A stretch of DNA of 64,000 nt, taken from positions 24,784 to 88,783 of the forward strand of contig JBBSWJ010000005.1 of NCBI GenBank assembly GCA_038046345.1, given 5' to 3'. Below, in pieces: positions 6,144 through 43,960 of the stretch. The DNA is from Nanobdellota archaeon (lineage in GTDB: Archaea; Nanobdellota; Nanobdellia; SCGC-AAA011-G17; JACPNG01). The notes under the pieces are model-generated. The model was not told the origin of the DNA and did no database searches. It was given only the letters and a program-made list of their open reading frames with translations. Both the position numbers and the translations under genes were made by a program. Position 1 is the stretch's first letter. Each line of letters begins with the position of its first letter.

Positions 6144-6731
6144 ATGGCAACATTTATAAACTACAGTAAATATAGTTTTACTATGATAAATATATACAAA
6201 CAAGAGTTAACAGTATTACAACAAGAAATATTAAGGTTGTTATTTGTTAAAGCCGGGGTGTCTTTGAATCAAAGAAGAATAGCAAGAATGCTCAAAGTAA
6301 CGCCTCCGGCAGTTATGAAAGCTCTTCCAAAATTAGAAGAAAAAGCCTTAATAAATTTAAATCAAGATGAAGATTCTAAGAGATGGTCCATTGAGTTAAA
6401 CAGGGACAATCATAAAGTTATCCAACTAAAGCGGGTGGACAATCTAAGGCAAATATATAGTTCTGGATTAGCCGATTTTTTAGAAAAAGAATTCGCAGGA
6501 GCCACTATAATCCTTTTTGGTAGTTATTCAAGAGGTGAAGACACAATAACATCTGATATTGATATTGTAGTAATCGGGAGAAAAGAGAAACAAATGAAAT
6601 TAACTAATTTTGATAAAGCACTTGAAAGAACTATCTTCATCAACTTTTATTCTTCCTTTAAAGAAGTTCATAAGCATTTGAGAGAAAATATTTTTAATGG
6701 GATAATACTTGCAGGCGGAATTGAAATATGA
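6144..6731 (+). CDS. nucleotidyltransferase-domain protein with N-terminal wHTH (MNT-type antitoxin-like)
   Basis: Carries the minimal NTase motif GSYSRGEDTITSDIDIVV. The alternative start ATG 6183 also has a TATA-like box upstream. Confidence 0.75.
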   Translation: MATFINYSKYSFTMINIYKQELTVLQQEILRLLFVKAGVSLNQRRIARMLKVTPPAVMKALPKLEEKALINLNQDEDSKRWSIELNRDNHKVIQLKRVDNLRQIYSSGLADFLEKEFAGATIILFGSYSRGEDTITSDIDIVVIGRKEKQMKLTNFDKALERTIFINFYSSFKEVHKHLRENIFNGIILAGGIEI

Positions 6732-7174
6732 AAGATTTAAAACAATTTGAGGAATTTATAAGGACAGGTATTATCAAAAAACAATCACCAGATAAATCGA
6801 GGTCAAAGTTTTTGGTTATGGAAGCTGAGCAAGGTTATACTTACTTGCTTAAGTTAATAAAAACAATGGGTATTGAAAATCGGAATGCTAATGATTATGT
6901 GAAAAATTGCTATGATATTTTAATGGAGCTGACAAGAGCAAAGATGTTGCTTGAGGGATTAAACGCTTCTGGCTTTAAGGCACATGAATCAGAGATTGCT
7001 TACTGGTGGATTTTGCAGTTTAAAGAACAAGATATCCGATTCTTAGATAAAATTAGATTCTTTAGGAATGGGATGCTTTATTATGGAACAATCTTGGATA
7101 AGGAATACGCAGAGAAAGTGATAGAATTTACAAAAAATAATTATCAAAAATTGAAGGCCATCTTAAATAAATGA
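6728..7174 (+). CDS. HEPN-domain-like protein, partner of the upstream NTase
   Basis: Overlaps the NTase gene by 4 nt (ATGA). It is a roughly 150-aa helical protein with an FRNGMLYYG segment typical of HEPN partners. The call rests partly on context. Confidence 0.6.
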   Translation: MKDLKQFEEFIRTGIIKKQSPDKSRSKFLVMEAEQGYTYLLKLIKTMGIENRNANDYVKNCYDILMELTRAKMLLEGLNASGFKAHESEIAYWWILQFKEQDIRFLDKIRFFRNGMLYYGTILDKEYAEKVIEFTKNNYQKLKAILNK

Positions 7175-8837: not shown

Positions 8838-9893
8838 CTAACCAAAAGTAAATGTATTAAACAAAAATCCTTTCTTGTTTATATCTAACTTTAATGTATA
8901 ACTACCATGATTTCCTTCAATTAAGCTATACAGCCTAGCGGTATCAACAACCACAAATGACCGGGCCCCATCGAATTTTATATCAACACCAGCCTGATCT
9001 TTTGTTACATAATCATCATTTATATAAACGTCCATCTCTAAAGGTTCAGTTGAATGAGCAACTATATTCGCTGATTTACCAGAAAACTTAATGACTACAG
9101 ACGCTCTATCAAGATTTTCTAAGCTGTCTTGGTTGCTTAACCATAAACCATCAAGATAGAGAACATCATCTTCAAGTTTAACAGGTAAAGTATAATTTTT
9201 AACTTGATCCGGAGACAACCCCCCATTTGCTACATCTTGTTTTCTTGGCAAAGCAAATTTATATCCGGCGTATATCTCTGGTGTATAAGATAAATCAGAA
9301 GAACTAGGAATATCAGCAATTAAATCCATGTCTATTGCTTCCCCATTTTCAGCTAAAAGTTCCTGAATAACTTTTTCAGTTTCTTCATAAGCTCCTTCTC
9401 CTATATGGTCATACCGAATAAACCCATTTCTATCAATAAGGTATTTTCTTGGCCAATACTTATTCTGATATGCCCTCCAAGTTGCGTAATCATTATCTTG
9501 AACAACTGTGTAGCTAATGTTAAATCTTCTAATTGCATCTTGTACATTATTTGCATCTTTCTCAAACGGGAATTCTGGAGTGTGGACACCAATGATAACA
9601 AGCCCTTTATCGGAATAACGGTTATGCCATTCATTTAAGAATGGGATAGTGTGAATACAATTTATACAGGTGTATGTCCAAAAGTCAATTAAGATAACTT
9701 TACCATTAAGATCTTTGATTGATGGTTTATAGTCTGAATTAAAAAAACCAGAAATTCCAACTAGCTCAGGAGCTTTTATTAAACCATTCTCGATCACTGG
9801 TTCTTCTGAATACTCATTATTAGCACGCTCAAAATAATAAATAACCAAGACAACTATTATCAAAGTAATAATTAGCTTGTAAATTATTTTCAT
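8838..9893 (-). CDS. membrane-anchored thioredoxin-like protein with a DipZ-type C-terminal domain
   Basis: Has an N-terminal TM and the motif FWTYTCINC (CxxC) in a TlpA/redoxin-like fold. The C-terminal roughly 150 aa end in ...FTFG, as I recall for DipZ-type proteins. Confidence 0.75.
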   Translation of the reverse strand: MKIIYKLIITLIIVVLVIYYFERANNEYSEEPVIENGLIKAPELVGISGFFNSDYKPSIKDLNGKVILIDFWTYTCINCIHTIPFLNEWHNRYSDKGLVIIGVHTPEFPFEKDANNVQDAIRRFNISYTVVQDNDYATWRAYQNKYWPRKYLIDRNGFIRYDHIGEGAYEETEKVIQELLAENGEAIDMDLIADIPSSSDLSYTPEIYAGYKFALPRKQDVANGGLSPDQVKNYTLPVKLEDDVLYLDGLWLSNQDSLENLDRASVVIKFSGKSANIVAHSTEPLEMDVYINDDYVTKDQAGVDIKFDGARSFVVVDTARLYSLIEGNHGSYTLKLDINKKGFLFNTFTFG

Positions 9894-9923: not shown

Positions 9924-10652
9924 TTAATCCTTAACAGTCAAAAAAGCAAGATAAGCTAGAAATGTTGGAATCAATGGTAATATGCACGGACTCAAAAATG
10001 AAAGAAGCCCGCCAATAAATGCAATGCCTATATTTAAAGATCCATTAAAGCCATAATTATTCAAGTTTAGTTTTATAAGAAAATCTGCTGCAAATGAAAA
10101 GTTTGCAATACTGCTTAATTGATTAGTAAACACTAGTATTCCTAACAATATTAATATCACTCCAAATATTTTAGAAAGATATTTAGTTAAATTACCAGTA
10201 GCTGTTATAAACTTTTTAGCATGATCAGTAAATAATCCCACTAATAAAAATGGTATACCCAAACCAAGAGAGTAAGCAAACAATAAATAAGCTGCATGCG
10301 TTGGAGATACAACTGCTAAAGTAAGTATTGCACCAAGTATACCACTTACACAAGGTGTCCAACTAACTGCGAAAGCTGCGCCAAACACAAATGAGGTAAG
10401 ATAAGCTGAATTAAACCTTTTTTTTATTTTAAGCTTGTGGCTTATTTCAAAGAATCTAATTTTGATAAAACCTAGTAAATAGATACCAAAAATAATTATG
10501 ATTATGCCCCCAACTCTTCCAAGCCATTTTAGCACAACTAATGGCGCATGAGAAAAAACAGTTTGAAGCAATACCCCAATAATTGAGAATATAACTGAAA
10601 AGCCTAAAACAAAGAAAATAGTATTTATAAAAATTGTATAATCTTTTTTCAT
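9924..10652 (-). CDS. ccdA: CcdA/DsbD-family thiol-disulfide transporter with permuted helix order
   Basis: The motif WTPCVSGILGAIL (TM4-type) is mid-protein. The motif LSFLSPCILPLIPTFLAYL (normally TM1) is at the extreme C-terminus. The N-terminus starts with the FFVLGFSVIF segment that normally follows TM1. Confidence 0.75.
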   Translation of the reverse strand: MKKDYTIFINTIFFVLGFSVIFSIIGVLLQTVFSHAPLVVLKWLGRVGGIIIIIFGIYLLGFIKIRFFEISHKLKIKKRFNSAYLTSFVFGAAFAVSWTPCVSGILGAILTLAVVSPTHAAYLLFAYSLGLGIPFLLVGLFTDHAKKFITATGNLTKYLSKIFGVILILLGILVFTNQLSSIANFSFAADFLIKLNLNNYGFNGSLNIGIAFIGGLLSFLSPCILPLIPTFLAYLAFLTVKD

Positions 10653-10812
10653 GATATCATTAAAATAATGTCAATATATATAATTTTTGTTTAATAAAAA
10701 TGTAGGAAAACAAAGGTTTTAAAATTGCTTTTTGCGCAATAATTTAATCTAAGAGGAAACTTTTCTAAAGGTTTATAAACTCAAGCGTTCCATTATATAT
10801 AAGGAGCTAAAA

Positions 10813-11241
10813 ATGGACGAATTACCAGAAGCGGTATTTACATGGAAGGTAAGAGAAGATGGTTTAACAGAAGTAGTACAAGGTCATGCAACAATAAAAG
10901 ATATTTTATACGAAATAGCAAGGCAGGCTTATAGAGCATCAGTAATGGAGGCACCAATACCAGGACAATCCACGGACCCTCCATCAGACGAATTTCTAGC
11001 ACCATATTTTGCTCACTTACAATTTCCAACAGATGGAATAAGTATAGCGAGAACTGATAGACATGAAACTGATGAATTATTTGGGATGGACTATGTTGGT
11101 GGTTTGCCAGTTAAAACTTCAGTTGTCGCTAGAGATGGAAAAATATTGTTTTGTAGTAGATTATATGACATGAATCATCGTGTTGATCATCTACATGTAA
11201 TGCGAACTGCAAATATGGCACTTGAAATAAGATTACAATAA
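10813..11241 (+). CDS. hypothetical protein
   Basis: ORF preceded by AAGGAG 8 nt upstream of the ATG. No recognisable motif. Confidence 0.55.
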   Translation: MDELPEAVFTWKVREDGLTEVVQGHATIKDILYEIARQAYRASVMEAPIPGQSTDPPSDEFLAPYFAHLQFPTDGISIARTDRHETDELFGMDYVGGLPVKTSVVARDGKILFCSRLYDMNHRVDHLHVMRTANMALEIRLQ

Positions 11242-11614: not shown

Positions 11615-12127
11615 GTGAATATGAAAGAAATAATCTTAATTCTGCTATTAACCTGTGGATGTGTAAGCATTCCAGAAGCTGGCATTGTAACAGAAGTAAT
11701 TGATGGTGATACATTCAAATTAAGCACAGGAGAAAGAGTAAGATTATTATGCATAAACACTCCAGAAAATGGTGAACCATATTTTAAAGAAGCAAAAGAT
11801 TTTTTAGAAAATTCTATATCCGGAAAAATAGTAAGATTAGAAGTAGACAAAACAAATTTAGATGATTACAGAAGATTATTACGTTATGTTTATGTTGATG
11901 ACATCTTAATAAATGAAGTTATTACAAAAGAAGGTCTTGCAGAAGTATTGATAATAAAACCAAACATAAAACATTGTGACAAAATAAAGCTAGCCGAAAA
12001 AATAGCACAAGAACAAAAAAAAGGTATTTGGAGTGTCAACCATGCAGGCTATCCGGAAGATACGCTAATGTTTCAAACTGCTGTGGTAACGGATAAATCA
12101 AAAAGTCACCACGTTGCATTGCAGTAG
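11615..12127 (+). CDS. secreted thermonuclease (staphylococcal nuclease-like)
   Basis: Has an N-terminal signal or lipobox-like LLLTCGC, then DGDTFKL...VRLLCINTPE...RLLRYV...KKGIW. The last roughly 30 codons overlap the convergent gene. Confidence 0.75.
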   Translation: MNMKEIILILLLTCGCVSIPEAGIVTEVIDGDTFKLSTGERVRLLCINTPENGEPYFKEAKDFLENSISGKIVRLEVDKTNLDDYRRLLRYVYVDDILINEVITKEGLAEVLIIKPNIKHCDKIKLAEKIAQEQKKGIWSVNHAGYPEDTLMFQTAVVTDKSKSHHVALQ

Positions 12128-12713
12128 TTATTCCAGAATTACCAGCACTACGCATAGCAGCTCCTACCATACCTTTCAAAACCATAACTTTTACCTGTTC
12201 ATCATTAATAAACTCATCCCCTTCAAAAAGTATTCTAAATTCGTCTAAAGCATTAGTAGAACGTAATATTCGTATTCTTTCACTTTTATCCAACTCGCCT
12301 TTAAATTCAGTATCATCAGGGACAACATCATCTAACCAATCAATATTTACAACTACAAGTAAAGAATAATTTCCTTTCATTGCGTTATAATCTTTTCTTG
12401 AAAAAGCTTCTTTTATTACTAAAACCTCCCCTTGTGTTAATTTAAAAGTCTCATCACTATTCAAGTCCTTTACACCGAATACAAAAGCATTATCCTTATC
12501 ATATAAGTATAACACCTTATCTGCGTTGCTTAATATTTCTTTAATCTGAGATGTTTCCTTAAGGATATTTTGAACAAAAAAACCACCAATGGATAATACA
12601 ATAACAAAAATCACAAAGATAATGCTAAGAATTTTTATAATAAACTTAGTAGTTCTAACAAACCACCAAACTAATAATATTATTAAAATTATAGGAATAA
12701 TTAGCCAGATCAT
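12036..12713 (-). CDS. hypothetical protein with two N-terminal TM helices
   Basis: ORF with a hydrophobic N-terminus. No recognisable motif. Confidence 0.5.
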   Translation of the reverse strand: MIWLIIPIILIILLVWWFVRTTKFIIKILSIIFVIFVIVLSIGGFFVQNILKETSQIKEILSNADKVLYLYDKDNAFVFGVKDLNSDETFKLTQGEVLVIKEAFSRKDYNAMKGNYSLLVVVNIDWLDDVVPDDTEFKGELDKSERIRILRSTNALDEFRILFEGDEFINDEQVKVMVLKGMVGAAMRSAGNSGITTAMQRGDFLIYPLPQQFETLAYLPDSLHG

Positions 12714-14284: not shown

Positions 14285-14315
14285 TGATATCATGTATATT
14301 GTGTGTAAAATGGTC
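14285..14315 (-). other. 3' half of the 23S pre-rRNA processing stem
   Basis: The sequence tgatatcatgtatattgtgtgtaaaatggtc pairs with 17306..17342. The paired blocks are attgtgtgtaa/ttacacacaat (11 bp), tgatatc/gatatca and ggtc/gacc. Confidence 0.7.
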
Positions 14316-17305
14316 TCGAGCTATTGGAAAATGCAGGCTTAATTTCTCGTTGCCTTGAAACTTACACCCCACTCCCATCAAACAGATCTTCTATCTGTGC
14401 TCTCCTTCTCTTTTCAAGGTGGGTTTCGTCCTTAGATGCTTTCAGGACTTATCCCACAAGGCGTAGCTGCCCGGCCTGCCTTGTCAGACAACCGGTACAC
14501 CAGAGGCCTCGAATCCTCGTTCCTCTCGTACTAAAGGATCCTTCCCCTCAGAAGATAAACAAATCCAGTAGATATCATACAAACTGTCTCACAACGTTCT
14601 TAACCCAGCTCACGATCCCTTTTAATAAGTGAACACCTTCACCCTTGGCCGCAAGCAGTACGTGGAAACTGTTAATTTCGACATACCATGCTCTTTTCCG
14701 CGCATTTCTGCACGACCACTCTACGATACAAGAATCTAATCTTTGTATCCGGATAGGAAGAGCCGACATCGAGGTAGCAAGCAGCGCCGTCGATAAACTC
14801 GGAATCAATTTATTGATCCTTTGAGCTCTTAGGCGCTACAACTCAATTATGCCCGAGATAGCTTTTCTGTCATGTCTAGCCCCCATCAATGAGGACATAG
14901 AAGTTCGCTAGGCCATACTTTCGTACCTGAATCCCGTATTGTTTGGAATCCAGTCAAGCCAGCTTTTGCCCTTGCACTCCACAGAGAATTTCTAAATCTC
15001 TTGAGCTGACCTTTGGGCCCTACTGATATCCTTTCAGCAGGGTCCCGCCCCAGGCAAACTATCCGCCAGTAGTTGTCTTTCATTACTGAAGTAAGTAATA
15101 TAGAATACAGAGGGTAGTATCTCACTTTTGCCTAAACGTACACTGGCGTGCACGCATCAACAGCTCCTACCTATTCTTAACACCATACTCCATACCACAG
15201 CTACAAGCTATAGTAAAGTTCTACGGGGTCTTCGCTTCCCACTGGAATTCTCTGGCCTTTGCACCAGAATAGTGTGTTCGGGAGGTTCTACGTAAAGACA
15301 GTGGATACCTCGTTACGCCATTCATGCAAGTCGTCAATCAAACGACAAGGTATTACGCTACCTTAAGAGAATTATAGTTATTCCCGCCGTTTACACGCTC
15401 TTAGCCCCCTTGAAAAGGAGTTTAAAGTACATGCACTGGGCAGACGTCACCTCCTATACAAACCATTACTGGCTAGCAGGAAGTTTCGTTTTTGTTAAAC
15501 AGTCGGGCATCCTTAGTTATTGAATCCTGTACTCGCAACTAAAAGCTACAAGCGCAGGAACCCCTTATGCCGAAGTCACAGGGCCAATATTGCCGATTTC
15601 CTTTACGTAAATTACCCCTCTCATACCTTAGGCTACTAACCCAGGGCACCTGTGCTGGTTCTGGATACGGTTATTTATGATCCTTCCATATTGTTTTTTC
15701 ACGGGCTCAAGGCATCTACCCAATCAACATACATTGACTATTCTCAGCTTTTCTCAGGTTCTCATCATGACAATTCTCCCCTGACATATGCTAATTAACA
15801 ACCATGTCTATGATTGTGGGTATAGCCCAAAGCAGCAACAATAAGGCTTTCGTCGCCGAATGTACATAAATAGTACTGGAATATTAACCAGTTTGCCTCT
15901 TCCCGCACGTCAATTTATGAGTGCAGTTAGGTCCGACTAACTCTTAGCTGAACTGCAGTGCTAAGAAAACCTTGCCCTTTCGGTATTAGAGAGTCTCACT
16001 CTATATAGGTCCTACTACCACCGGGATTCTTATTCGTACACGGTCCATTTACTTTCACAAGTATACTTCCATCCATGCACGACACCTATCTACCACCTTG
16101 CTTTACAGCAAGTCTGAAGTATCGGTCGTCAGTTTAGCCCCGTTAATTTTCAGGGCATAATACCTTGACGGGTGAGCTATTACGCTTTCTTTAGAGGATG
16201 GCTGCTTCTAAGCCAACCTCCCCGCTGTCTCTGGTATTACACACCATTCACCCTTTCACACTTAACTGACAGTTAGGGACCTTAACTTCAGGCTGGGATG
16301 TTCCCCTTTTGGGACACACGCTTACCGCGCGCCCCTGCTTCCCGCCTTCTACGACGCATTGACATTTGGAGTTGAACAAGAGTGAGAGGAATTTCTTCCC
16401 TTAACATTCTAATCCGTAGCTCTACAACCAATGCTATCTCGAGCGAGACTATTCTGCGGCATATTTCGATAGGAACAGGCTATTAGCAAACTCGATTGGC
16501 TTTTCACCCCTAATCCCAAATCATAAGAGCACATGCACGTAGCACCTCTTCAGGCCTCCACCTCGTATCACCAAGGCTTCACCTTGCTCAGGATTAGATC
16601 GTCTGCTTTCCGGTCAGACCCCCATGACTTAAGGCGCTTTCACACCTCGCTCCTCGCAAGCTGCGAGCATTTGCTTTCGCTCAGCATTCGTACTAAAAGT
16701 ACTTACGCTCGCCATGAAGATCAACTCCCCGGCCCGTTATTCAAAACGTACGGTGCAACTCATGCTGCACCATTCTATAACCGTAAGGTTTCAGGAACTT
16801 TTCACACCCTATCAGAGGTACTTTTCAATGTTCCATCACTGTACTATTTGCTATCGGACTTAAAACATATTTAGCCTTAGAAGTTGATGCCTCCTAAATT
16901 CCTGCTCAATATCCAATGAACAGTACTATGGATACTTGTAAATCTTTCACGATTATCCTACGGGGCTATCACCCTGTGTCGCATACCATTCCAGATAACT
17001 TTAGATAAACATGTTAAGATGAAAAACAAGTCCAAACACCACATGTTGCTTCTTTTTCAAGAAGTAATTCGGTTTAGGCTATACGGATTTCGCTCGCTGT
17101 TACTCACCGCATCTCAATTGATTTCTTTTCCTGCGGGTACTAAGACGCTTCAGTTCCCCGCGTTATACATCCTCTCGGATTTAATAGGAAGTCCTATTCG
17201 GGAATCATTGGTTCGTAGGCTGCATGCGCCTCGCCAATGCATTTCGTAGCTTGCCACGCCCTTCATCTTTGTTTTTAAGCCGAATCATCCACCTTACGGC
17301 GTAAT
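14316..17305 (-). rRNA. 23S rRNA (ends approximate)
   Basis: Reverse-complement matches are seen to the sarcin-ricin loop AGUACGAGAGGAAC (near 14520), GAGCUGGGUU.AGAACGU.GUGAGACAGUU, CCUCGAUGUCGGCU, AAGACCCCGU and the 5' GGAUGAUUCGGC...GAAGGGCGUGGCAAGC. The gene is bounded by a long flanking inverted repeat. Confidence 0.9.
14795..14820 (-). other. 26-nt BHB-like insert (candidate mini-intron) in 23S helix 89
   Basis: RNA sense reads AAGA-GCUC-AAA-GGAUCAAUAAAUUGAUUCC-GAGU-UUA-UCGAC. The elements are a 4-bp helix GCUC:GAGU (one G.U), 3-nt bulges AAA and UUA, and an inner 7-bp hairpin. Removal gives GAGCUCAAAUCGACGG, against the canonical GAG(U/C)(U/C)CAUAUCGAC. Confidence 0.45.
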
Positions 17306-17342
17306 GACCTATAATTACACACAATACCTATACACGATATCA
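17306..17342 (-). other. 5' half of the 23S pre-rRNA processing stem
   Basis: Complement of 14285..14315. Confidence 0.7.
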
Positions 17343-17440: not shown

Positions 17441-17548
17441 TGGACCCGTCGGGAAAATCGACGATCCAAGATGTCTAATGCAAATCGTTTTCGAACCCGA
17501 GGCCCCTACCTTGCAAGGGTAATGCTCTACCAGCTGAGCTACGGGCCC
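17441..17548 (-). tRNA. tRNA-Ala(UGC) with a 35-nt intron in the T-loop, located in the 16S-23S spacer
   Basis: RNA: GGGCCCG UA GCUC AGCUGGUA GAGC A UUACC CUUGCAA GGUAG GGGCC UCGGG UUCGAA[35 nt]U CCCGA CGGGUCC A. The G3:U70 alanine identity pair is present and the anticodon is UGC. Confidence 0.85.
17455..17489 (-). other. BHB intron of tRNA-Ala between T-loop positions 59 and 60
   Basis: The outer helix h is the T-stem UCGGG:CCCGA. The central helix H is UUCG:CGAU (3 bp plus U.U). The bulges are AAA and UUU. The inner helix h' is ACGAU(UU):(GG)AUCGU. Cutting after the 2nd bulge nt gives a 7-nt T-loop UUCGAAU. Confidence 0.75.
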
Positions 17549-17605: not shown

Positions 17606-19140
<1,535 letters not shown>

Positions 19141-43325: not shown

Positions 43326-43900
43326 GAGTAGTAATAGCTGGTGGGCCATATTGTGGTAAAACAACAGTAATAAATGAATTAAGCACACAGGGCTTTAGGA
43401 CAATAAACGAAGCAACAACGGAGATTATTAAAAAGGAACAAGAAGCAGGTAATAACGAACCATGGTTAGAAAGAGAAAAATTTCAGAAAAAAATCATGGA
43501 TCTTCAAATTCAACAGTTTAATTCAGCAAAAAATAATGTAATTACTTTTTATGATCGGGGTTTAGTTGATGGATTAGCATACTATCATTTAGATGGCATT
43601 GACCCACCAAAAGAACTAACAGAACATGCCTCAAAAAAAAGGTATAATCTTGTTTTCATTCCGGATCTTATTGAAGGATTCAAACCTGACAAAACTCGTG
43701 GTGAATCACTTGAAGAACGTAAGCTAGTTCATGAGCTTATCAGAAAATGTTATTCTGATCATGGTTATAATGTAATTAATATACCAAGCATAAGCGTTTC
43801 TGAACGTGTATTGTTTATTAAAAAGAAGATTAGCGAGCATAAACTACTTTTAAAAGATAATATACGCCGAGAGCAGGATTTGAACCTGCATATCCGTTAG
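43310..43900 (+). CDS. AAA_28-type P-loop ATPase/kinase-like protein
   Basis: Has VVIAGGPYCGKTT Walker A and FYDRGLVDGLAY. The start is set at MDNQIRV (ATG 43310). The 3' end overlaps the antisense tRNA-Ser. Confidence 0.7.
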   Translation: MDNQIRVVIAGGPYCGKTTVINELSTQGFRTINEATTEIIKKEQEAGNNEPWLEREKFQKKIMDLQIQQFNSAKNNVITFYDRGLVDGLAYYHLDGIDPPKELTEHASKKRYNLVFIPDLIEGFKPDKTRGESLEERKLVHELIRKCYSDHGYNVINIPSISVSERVLFIKKKISEHKLLLKDNIRREQDLNLHIR

Positions 43901-43960
43901 GAAACAAGCTTACTGGTATAATTTCCAGGCTTGCGCAATACCAAGTTATGCGATCTCGGC
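43865..43960 (-). tRNA. tRNA-Ser(GGA) with a 12-nt canonical intron
   Basis: The acceptor is GCCGAGA/UCUCGGC with discriminator G. The anticodon stem is CAAGC/GCUUG and the loop is CU-GGA-A[AUUAUACCAGUA]A. It has a long variable arm (UCC-UAAC-GGA) and T-arm GCAGG-UUCAAAU-CCUGC. Confidence 0.85.
43911..43922 (-). other. canonical (37/38) BHB intron of tRNA-Ser
   Basis: The central helix is CUGG:CCAG and the bulges are AAA and UAA. Confidence 0.75.

Follow-up and report, generated by a model that had tools for sequence, protein, structure and literature searches.

We describe here a gene of the CcdA family found in a stretch of 64,000 nucleotides (nt) from a Nanobdellota archaeon (assembly GCA_038046345.1, contig JBBSWJ010000005.1, positions 24,784 to 88,783; this whole stretch is called the window below), whose product carries its transmembrane (TM) helices in a circularly permuted order, the first helix of ordinary CcdAs (TM1) being placed after the last (TM6). 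The window is archaeal, since it holds archaeal 16S rRNA (17606-19140, minus strand) and 23S rRNA (14304-17316, minus strand), and the G+C content of window and genome is 34%. A protein identical to the gene product (P0001) is registered in NCBI as [quoted passage not shown], MAG denoting a metagenome-assembled genome. A preceding reading of this DNA, made from the sequence only, had claimed that the protein begins with a TM2-type segment, has WTPC in the middle of the chain and ends with a TM1 motif. This is what we found: the N-terminus, MKKDYTIFINTIFFVLGFSVIFSIIGVLL, is of TM2 type, WTPC occupies residues 98-101, and the C-terminus, GGLLSFLSPCILPLIPTFLAYLAFLTVKD, is of TM1 type. The features of the locus are as follows.

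9924..10652, minus strand: permuted ccdA gene, 242 amino acids (aa) plus stop, in the order TM2-TM3-TM4-TM5-TM6-linker-TM1', where TM1' is the relocated TM1
10092..10640, minus strand: core, residues 5-187, corresponding to canonical TM2-TM6 and the tail after TM6 (positions 53-235 of the canonical profile described below, 41-209 of 5vkv_A)
10350..10361, minus strand: WTPC motif of TM4, residues 98-101, with redox Cys101, codons read directly
10032..10124, minus strand: linker between TM6 and TM1', residues 177-207, predicted to be extracytoplasmic
9930..10040, minus strand: TM1', residues 205-241, holding the SFLSPCILPLIP motif (canonical profile 5-41, 5vkv_A 2-33)
9984..9992, minus strand: SPC codons, residues 221-223, with redox Cys223, codons read directly
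10674..10683, minus strand: TATA-like box, reading TTATATATAT on the coding strand and lying 22-31 nt before the ATG
8838..9893, minus strand: DipZ-type thioredoxin-like partner gene, 351 aa, 30 nt downstream of ccdA

The open reading frame (ORF) of ccdA is the longest possible in its own frame, and in the 160 nt that separate its ATG from a divergent neighbour at 10813 there are several stops in frame, so that a missing N-terminus is excluded. No ORF matching the TM1 profile was found in these 160 nt as a relic of TM1, and no second copy of ccdA exists in the window, the permuted ORF being the only CcdA-like one. The sequence-only reading was therefore right that no N-terminal part is lacking, as these stops and the same start in all 120 closest homologues indicate, while its argument from a missing exon is inapplicable to an archaeon. 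The TATA-like box which it had pointed out upstream of the ATG is present; taken alone, in an AT-rich genome, it is weak evidence. No Shine-Dalgarno sequence lies between the box and the ATG, and the two together fit a leaderless archaeal mRNA.

Helix order and conservation

The Pfam family DsbD_TM (PF02683) matches the protein in two stretches with 48.8 bits, against a gathering cut-off of 27.1. The best stretch aligns residues 9-175 with model positions 46-215 of 219, and therefore the first ~45 positions of the model are absent from the N-terminus of the protein. In a phmmer comparison with the Thermus CcdA (5vkv_A), residues 9-185 correspond to CcdA 41-209 (98.9 bits) and residues 205-236 to CcdA 2-33 (29.2 bits, independent E-value 7.5e-6), SLNIGIAFIGGLLSFLSPCILPLIPTFLAYLA of the window protein being aligned to SLSLTAAFLAGVLSFLSPCVLPLVPTYLFYLG. 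When a canonical profile was built from 54 CcdAs of canonical order, residues 5-187 were placed on its positions 53-235 with 173 bits and residues 205-241 on positions 5-41, which are TM1, with 46.8 bits (E 1e-16). A profile made of proteins of the permuted family gave the same wrap-around alignment. Because the alignment wraps in all four comparisons (Pfam, 5vkv_A, permuted-family profile and canonical profile), where a CcdA/DsbD_TM protein of ordinary build would show a collinear order from TM1 to TM6 as two consecutive repeats of three helices, the circular permutation is confirmed as real at the level of sequence comparison. The wrap that had been anticipated for PF02683, with TM1 at the C-terminus, is thus seen against 5vkv_A and the canonical profile, the C-terminal segment falling on TM1 and not on TM4. 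Six hydrophobic segments are present and agree with the helices of an AlphaFold2 (AF2) model, which breaks a helix at residues 99-102, in the WTPC region.

Since CcdA is an internal 3+3 repeat, TM1 resembles TM4, and one could suppose that a CcdA which had lost its TM1 acquired, at the C-terminus, either a second TM4-like helix by duplication or a Cys-Pro motif by convergence; a profile of TM1' does match TM4 of some proteins. These matches are faint (3-11 bits only), against the 46.8 bits with which residues 205-241 align to TM1 positions in the canonical profile and the further match to positions 2-33 of 5VKV, and the motif is near-identical to TM1 of the closest canonical relatives, SFLSPC[VI]LPL[IV]PAFL.YL. 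This explanation is very improbable, and the C-terminal helix is, by its alignments, of TM1 type and not of TM4 type.

The 120 best database matches, which are clusters at 90% identity, all have the permuted order, so that relatives with the same order, for which the sequence-only reading had suggested looking, are abundant. They come mostly from metagenome genomes of Woesearchaeota and Nanoarchaeota and are 59-93% identical to the query, with the exception of P0001, the window protein itself. In every one of the 120, the N-terminus is a short tail rich in lysine and arginine (K and R) followed by the TM2 motif FFVLGFS, one cysteine lies near position 101 and another near 223. The names of permuted homologues are generic, "CcdA" or "TauE/SafE". 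The earlier reading would have been weakened if this order were already common and annotated: it is common in metagenomes, but it is covered only by such generic names, and the full-text literature searched gave no description of the permutation.

An alignment of 43 of the closest homologues, with a mean identity of 63%, has 49 invariant columns, among which are W98, P100, C101, S218, F219, L220, P222, C223, P226 and L227; S221 is nearly invariant, and the linker between TM6 and TM1' likewise has conserved positions. Both redox cysteines, Cys223 in SPC and Cys101 in TPC, are thus retained in membrane-embedded Pro-Cys motifs, as had been stated. So many invariant columns at this mean identity, including both Cys/Pro motifs, point to purifying selection, as is expected of a protein that still functions.

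As the window belongs to a metagenome-assembled genome, and one unrelated homologue (P0145) has a suspicious exact repeat and a frameshifted tail, it has to be considered whether faulty assembly, a frameshift or wrong gene calling produced the arrangement, or whether the gene is a pseudogene in decay. Against this, the order is common to all 120 nearest protein clusters from many sources, some clusters are found on up to 50 contigs, and on contigs as long as 481 kb, the order also appears in seven species-representative genomes, and the ORF is intact and strongly conserved. The artefact explanation is contradicted by these independent occurrences and is effectively refuted.

Several length variants were met among the homologues. 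P0212 (360 aa) and P0233 (340 aa) are permuted CcdAs with an extra hydrophobic insertion of 80-100 aa in the TM3-TM4 loop, probably several added helices, and the two insertions are homologous to one another (blastp E 1.6e-6). That loop is also enlarged in canonical P0168, P0184 and P0187, by other insertions. We rejected these loop insertions as an independent marker of ancestry, as they are not demonstrably homologous between permuted and canonical proteins. Short CcdA-like proteins apparently minus helices, namely P0150 (TM4 region), P0191 (TM2) and P0240 (TM2-3), may be fragments or real reduced variants.

Topology, partner gene and probable function

Topology was predicted by the positive-inside rule from the mean number of K+R residues in each segment of the 43 sequences.

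N-tail: predicted inside, mean K+R 2.5
TM2-TM3 loop: predicted outside, mean K+R 0.0
TM3-TM4 loop: predicted inside, mean K+R 7.0
TM4-TM5 loop: predicted outside, mean K+R 0.1
TM5-TM6 loop: predicted inside, mean K+R 3.5
TM6-TM1' linker: predicted outside, mean K+R 1.3
C-tail: predicted inside, mean K+R 2.0

The totals are ~15 for the predicted cytoplasmic segments versus 1.4 for the external ones, and the window protein itself has 14 inside and 1 outside. Every helix is thus predicted to retain its canonical CcdA orientation, in agreement with the earlier claim that moving TM1 behind TM6 preserves topology. The homologous membrane domain of DsbD has periplasmic domains on either side of it (PMC2631958), and TM1 therefore enters the membrane from outside. 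The loop charges of the permuted protein predict that both of its termini are cytoplasmic rather than external, as opposed to the outside termini of CcdA/DsbD_TM proteins. TM2 would become an ordinary N-in signal anchor, and TM1' would be tethered to TM6 from the outer face, instead of to TM2 from the inner face. As TM1' is synthesised last, with only 4-15 residues behind it in most family members, it would be inserted after translation ends.

The product of the gene 30 nt downstream of ccdA is anchored by an N-terminal TM segment and has a Redoxin domain, in which the cysteine motif is C-I-N-C, followed by Thioredoxin_10 at the C-terminus (Pfam), and its best structural relative is PDB 2hyx_A, "Protein dipZ" (E 7.8e-47). 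The same partner gene lies immediately downstream of permuted archaeal ccdA genes (L001, L002 and L006) and of canonical archaeal ones (L003, L004, L010 and L015), while Redoxin-only genes follow permuted Chloroflexota genes in L011 and L014. The pairing of CcdA/DsbD_TM proteins with an extracytoplasmic thioredoxin-like acceptor is thus found here also and, because the same partner follows permuted and canonical genes, the permuted protein probably keeps the usual CcdA function.

In the mechanism that we propose, the six helices would assemble into the usual CcdA fold with TM2, TM3, TM5 and TM6 as a scaffold, and TM4 (Cys101) and TM1' (Cys223) would lie centrally and form the redox-active disulfide. 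Reducing equivalents would pass from cytoplasmic thioredoxin to Cys101/Cys223 and further to the CxxC of the membrane-anchored DipZ-type partner, which would then reduce extracytoplasmic substrates. Cytochrome c maturation as the end use is doubtful for DPANN archaea. In the published model (PMC7329351, citing Zhou and Bushweller 2018), the other helices make up an O-shaped scaffold, at whose centre TM1 and TM4 are mobile. The permutation would therefore move the tether of one mobile helix from the inner face to the outer.

With both termini inside and the tether of a mobile helix altered, the new order might have changed the function, giving another electron donor or direction, or a small-molecule exporter of the LysE superfamily or of ArsG/TauE-like kind; NCBI gives some homologues the name "sulfite exporter TauE/SafE family protein", and a weak similarity to ArsG is seen in NCBIfam. 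The ArsG score (44.9 bits) is far under the cut-off of 200, no Pfam family besides DsbD_TM is matched, both redox cysteines and the Pro-rich motifs are invariant, and the DipZ-type partner is the same after permuted and canonical genes. A changed function is therefore held to be improbable.

Other assignments of the window protein were also rejected. DsbD (NCBIfam NF001419) gave 27.1 bits versus a cut-off of 330; the 44.9 bits for the ArsG permease (NF040495) stand against an equivalog cut-off; DsbD_TM is the only Pfam match at E <= 1, which leaves no TauE/SafE identity; and for TsoB the curated threshold was not reached.

Elsewhere in the window, ARAGORN found zero tRNAs across the 64 kb. Rfam has a tRNA match of 57 nt only in the 16S-23S spacer of the rRNA operon (17492-17548) and another of 96 nt at 43865-43960 (minus strand), and these Rfam-only matches may be intron-containing or otherwise atypical tRNAs. 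At 6144-7174 (plus strand), a 195-aa protein with a MarR-type winged helix fused to a nucleotidyltransferase domain is encoded by an ORF sharing a 4-nt overlap with a second one, of 148 aa and unmatched in Pfam; together they are a possible toxin-antitoxin system of nucleotidyltransferase (MNT)/HEPN type. A homologue of staphylococcal nuclease, hydrophobic at its N-terminus (11615-12127, plus strand), overlaps, over ~90 nt at its 3' end, the 3' end of a convergent ORF (12036-12713, minus strand), which encodes a membrane-anchored protein of 225 aa and of unknown family.

Distribution and origin of the permuted order

A scan of one genome per species gave at least 80 loci, which were classed with separate TM2-6 and TM1 profiles. 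Among the loci listed, the permuted order is found in Woesearchaeota (L001, L002), in a MAG labelled Saccharibacteria (L006) and, in bacteria, in Chloroflexota (L011, L012, L014) and Trueperaceae (L029). The canonical-order loci closest to the window protein, among those listed, belong to Micrarchaeota (L003, L004), Undinarchaeales (L008), Woesearchaeota (L009, L013) and Nitrososphaerales (L005, L007, L010). The "Candidatus Saccharibacteria" MAG (CAZPJV010000001.1, 3914-6878) has a Woese-type permuted ccdA of 56% identity, with a DipZ-type thioredoxin gene ~1 kb downstream; this is either a misbinned archaeal contig or a DPANN-CPR (candidate phyla radiation) transfer.

In the TM2-6 core, Woese-type permuted proteins are 56% identical to canonical DPANN CcdAs, 50% to Nitrososphaerales CcdAs, 38% to other permuted proteins and 36% to other canonical proteins. 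In 193 of 200 neighbour-joining (NJ) bootstraps, Woese-type permuted sequences fell together with canonical DPANN ones in a split that left out all bacterial-type permuted sequences, and monophyly of all permuted sequences was obtained in 0 of 200. The order must therefore have changed at least twice on these trees, and a number of two or more is robust for the sequences compared; the same order in some bacteria would have arisen via at least one separate change. A parsimony count of 15-22 order changes on bootstrapped NJ trees was rejected, because the deep branches are unresolved. That CcdA was permuted several times over, in separate events in DPANN, Chloroflexota, Deinococcota and perhaps a large number of other lineages, each time at the same loop, with the termini flipped, the mobile helix re-tethered and the function kept, is a proposal to which we give nearly as much credence as to its opposite.

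The junctions suggest how the DPANN form may have originated. Canonical Woesearchaeota CcdAs end with ...FTNQ-LPRIANLAFAGSLVKP, and the permuted family continues ...FTNQ-LSRIANLAFASN.LI.LN, then ~10 residues rich in G/S/N, and then the old N-terminus, ..LNIGIAF.AG..SFLSPC... within the chain. In the window protein, the first half of the linker, LSSIANFSFAADFL, matches the canonical Woesearchaeota C-tail LPRIANLAFAGSLVKP and is followed by ~9-12 G/S/N-rich residues. The canonical TM1-TM2 loop (SG-TAAAEIKKDSRKAKA) is split in permuted proteins, its start forming the C-tail (AS-T..K) and its end the N-tail (MKQKRDW), so that the break point is, as judged from these alignments, the cytoplasmic TM1-TM2 loop. 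This anatomy fits an in-frame fusion of two tandem copies with loss of both outer parts: two ccdA copies would have fused in tandem in a DPANN archaeal lineage, after which the first copy would have lost TM1 and the second TM2-TM6.

We searched for intermediates of such a process. A query consisting of the junction only, run against 1.84 billion cluster representatives, gave 635 matches at E <= 0.001. Among the best 150 of these, 38 have the permuted order, and in 18 of the 38 the core is nearly complete; these are 35-59% identical to the query junction. A synthetic query with both junctions (TM1-loop-TM2 plus TM6-linker-TM1') gave top 120 matches all of 200-262 aa. No TM1-core-TM1 or fused tandem protein was seen among the best 150 representatives, the 80 loci listed and the top 120 double-junction matches, ~360 proteins and 80 genomic loci having been covered in all, and there is no tandem ccdA pair among the loci listed. 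The proposal of the sequence-only reading that the protein is a product of duplication and truncation thus agrees with the junction anatomy, but no tandem intermediate accompanies it, and duplication-truncation is not distinguished on this ground from fission and refusion.

If the gene had instead been split in the TM1-TM2 loop and its two pieces rejoined in swapped order, this would account for the empty searches for an intermediate, and short proteins with linker and TM1' only do exist in the databases (e.g., P0124, P0125 and P0152). These short proteins are from short contigs and look like truncated ORFs, a TM1-only gene beside a TM2-6 gene occurs in 0 of the 80 loci listed, and at the junction both the canonical C-tail and the canonical N-terminus are preserved in full length with only ~10 new residues between them, which is the simple product of read-through from one tandem copy into the next. 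Fission is therefore considered unlikely, and duplication followed by truncation is preferred.

One canonical-type CcdA, P0145 (291 aa), has an exact tandem repeat of ~56 aa over the TM1 region, giving two TM1 copies, and its tail after the repeat is Gly/Ala/Arg-rich and looks frameshifted. It is probably an assembly or frameshift artefact but may instead be a recent duplication, confined to the TM1 segment.

Taking helix order, conservation and gene context together, we consider the window protein very probably to be a functional CcdA-type transmembrane thiol-disulfide electron transporter with a circularly permuted helix order. Several points weigh against this conclusion. The AF2 model has a predicted local distance difference test score (pLDDT) of 69.6, which is moderate confidence, and the placement of TM1' rests on sequence, as do the expectations that TM1' occupies the position of TM1 and that the cysteines come to bonding distance. 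The electron-transfer role of permuted members is drawn from sequence and gene context, the deep NJ branches are unreliable, so that only the lower bound of two order changes is robust and not 15-22, and the searches described above returned no intermediate.

Relation to known systems and biological meaning

Compared with CcdA generally, and with that of Thermus thermophilus (5VKV) in particular, the window protein has ~34-40% identity over TM2-TM6, a clear match to TM1, the same SPC and TPC motifs, six hydrophobic helices, an adjacent gene for a thioredoxin-like acceptor and a similar length (242 aa vs 232 aa). It differs in that TM1 comes after TM6 and not before TM2, the cytoplasmic TM1-TM2 loop is cut, the termini are predicted to be inside and not outside, and the permuted family has a new conserved external linker of 25-38 aa from TM6 to TM1'. 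The nearest relatives of canonical order are canonical DPANN CcdAs (P0133 and L009 of Woesearchaeota, L003 and L004 of Micrarchaeota, L008 of Undinarchaeales; ~56% core identity), which have in common with it the motif L.RIANLAFA in the tail after TM6 and the DipZ-type gene downstream. Unlike it, they run from TM1 to TM6 in 237-238 aa and have only 2-3 residues before TM1.

DipZ is a CcdA-type membrane domain fused to a thioredoxin module, and the two window genes together therefore correspond to a split DipZ. The partner matches the thioredoxin and C-terminal domains of Mycobacterium tuberculosis DipZ (PDB 2HYX and 5CYY, the C-terminal part), but in the window there are two genes, separated by a stop codon and 30 nt, instead of one polypeptide; the membrane component has the permuted helix order, and the thioredoxin module is anchored by a TM segment of its own. 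With Escherichia coli DsbD, the window protein shares a homologous transmembrane core, the cysteines in TM1 and TM4 and the mechanism of a disulfide cascade; DsbD has ~570 aa with flanking periplasmic domains (PMC2631958), whereas the window protein has 242 aa and neither domain.

Natural circular permutations are well documented in soluble proteins and rarely reported in alpha-helical membrane proteins. A permutation via gene duplication and deletion was proposed in 2015 for VKOR/DsbB, four-helix membrane oxidoreductases, and described by its authors as the first report for alpha-helical membrane proteins (PMC4555120). VKOR/DsbB are also membrane thiol-disulfide oxidoreductases; their case is based on structure only, in families without clear sequence similarity, while that of CcdA is evident from sequence, with ~56% identical canonical relatives. 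CIRPIN, a 2026 systematic survey of circular permutations, mentions neither CcdA, DsbD nor membrane proteins. No prior description of a permuted CcdA or DsbD was found in the full-text literature, most subscription journals lying outside its coverage, and a broader literature search on permuted transmembrane proteins gave nothing on CcdA. The permuted CcdA is thus conserved, unusual in architecture and evolution, and apparently undescribed.

The permutation of CcdA is unambiguous at the sequence level and is present in hundreds of natural variants, which annotation blind to domain order hides as "CcdA" or misnames "TauE/SafE". The finding raises the questions of whether a six-helix redox transporter can be assembled when a catalytic central helix is made last and would be inserted after translation, whether the proposed elevator movement of TM1/TM4 tolerates a TM1 that is tethered at the outer face rather than the inner, and why the permuted order was fixed in a large DPANN clade. 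As a speculation on the last of these, the order may have been favoured because the N-terminus no longer has to be translocated and both ends become available for cytoplasmic fusions. If the permutation is recurrent, it would be an unusually clear, sequence-evident and recurrent natural case in an alpha-helical membrane transporter, and would provide a natural experiment on the insertion order of membrane proteins and on the proposed elevator mechanism.

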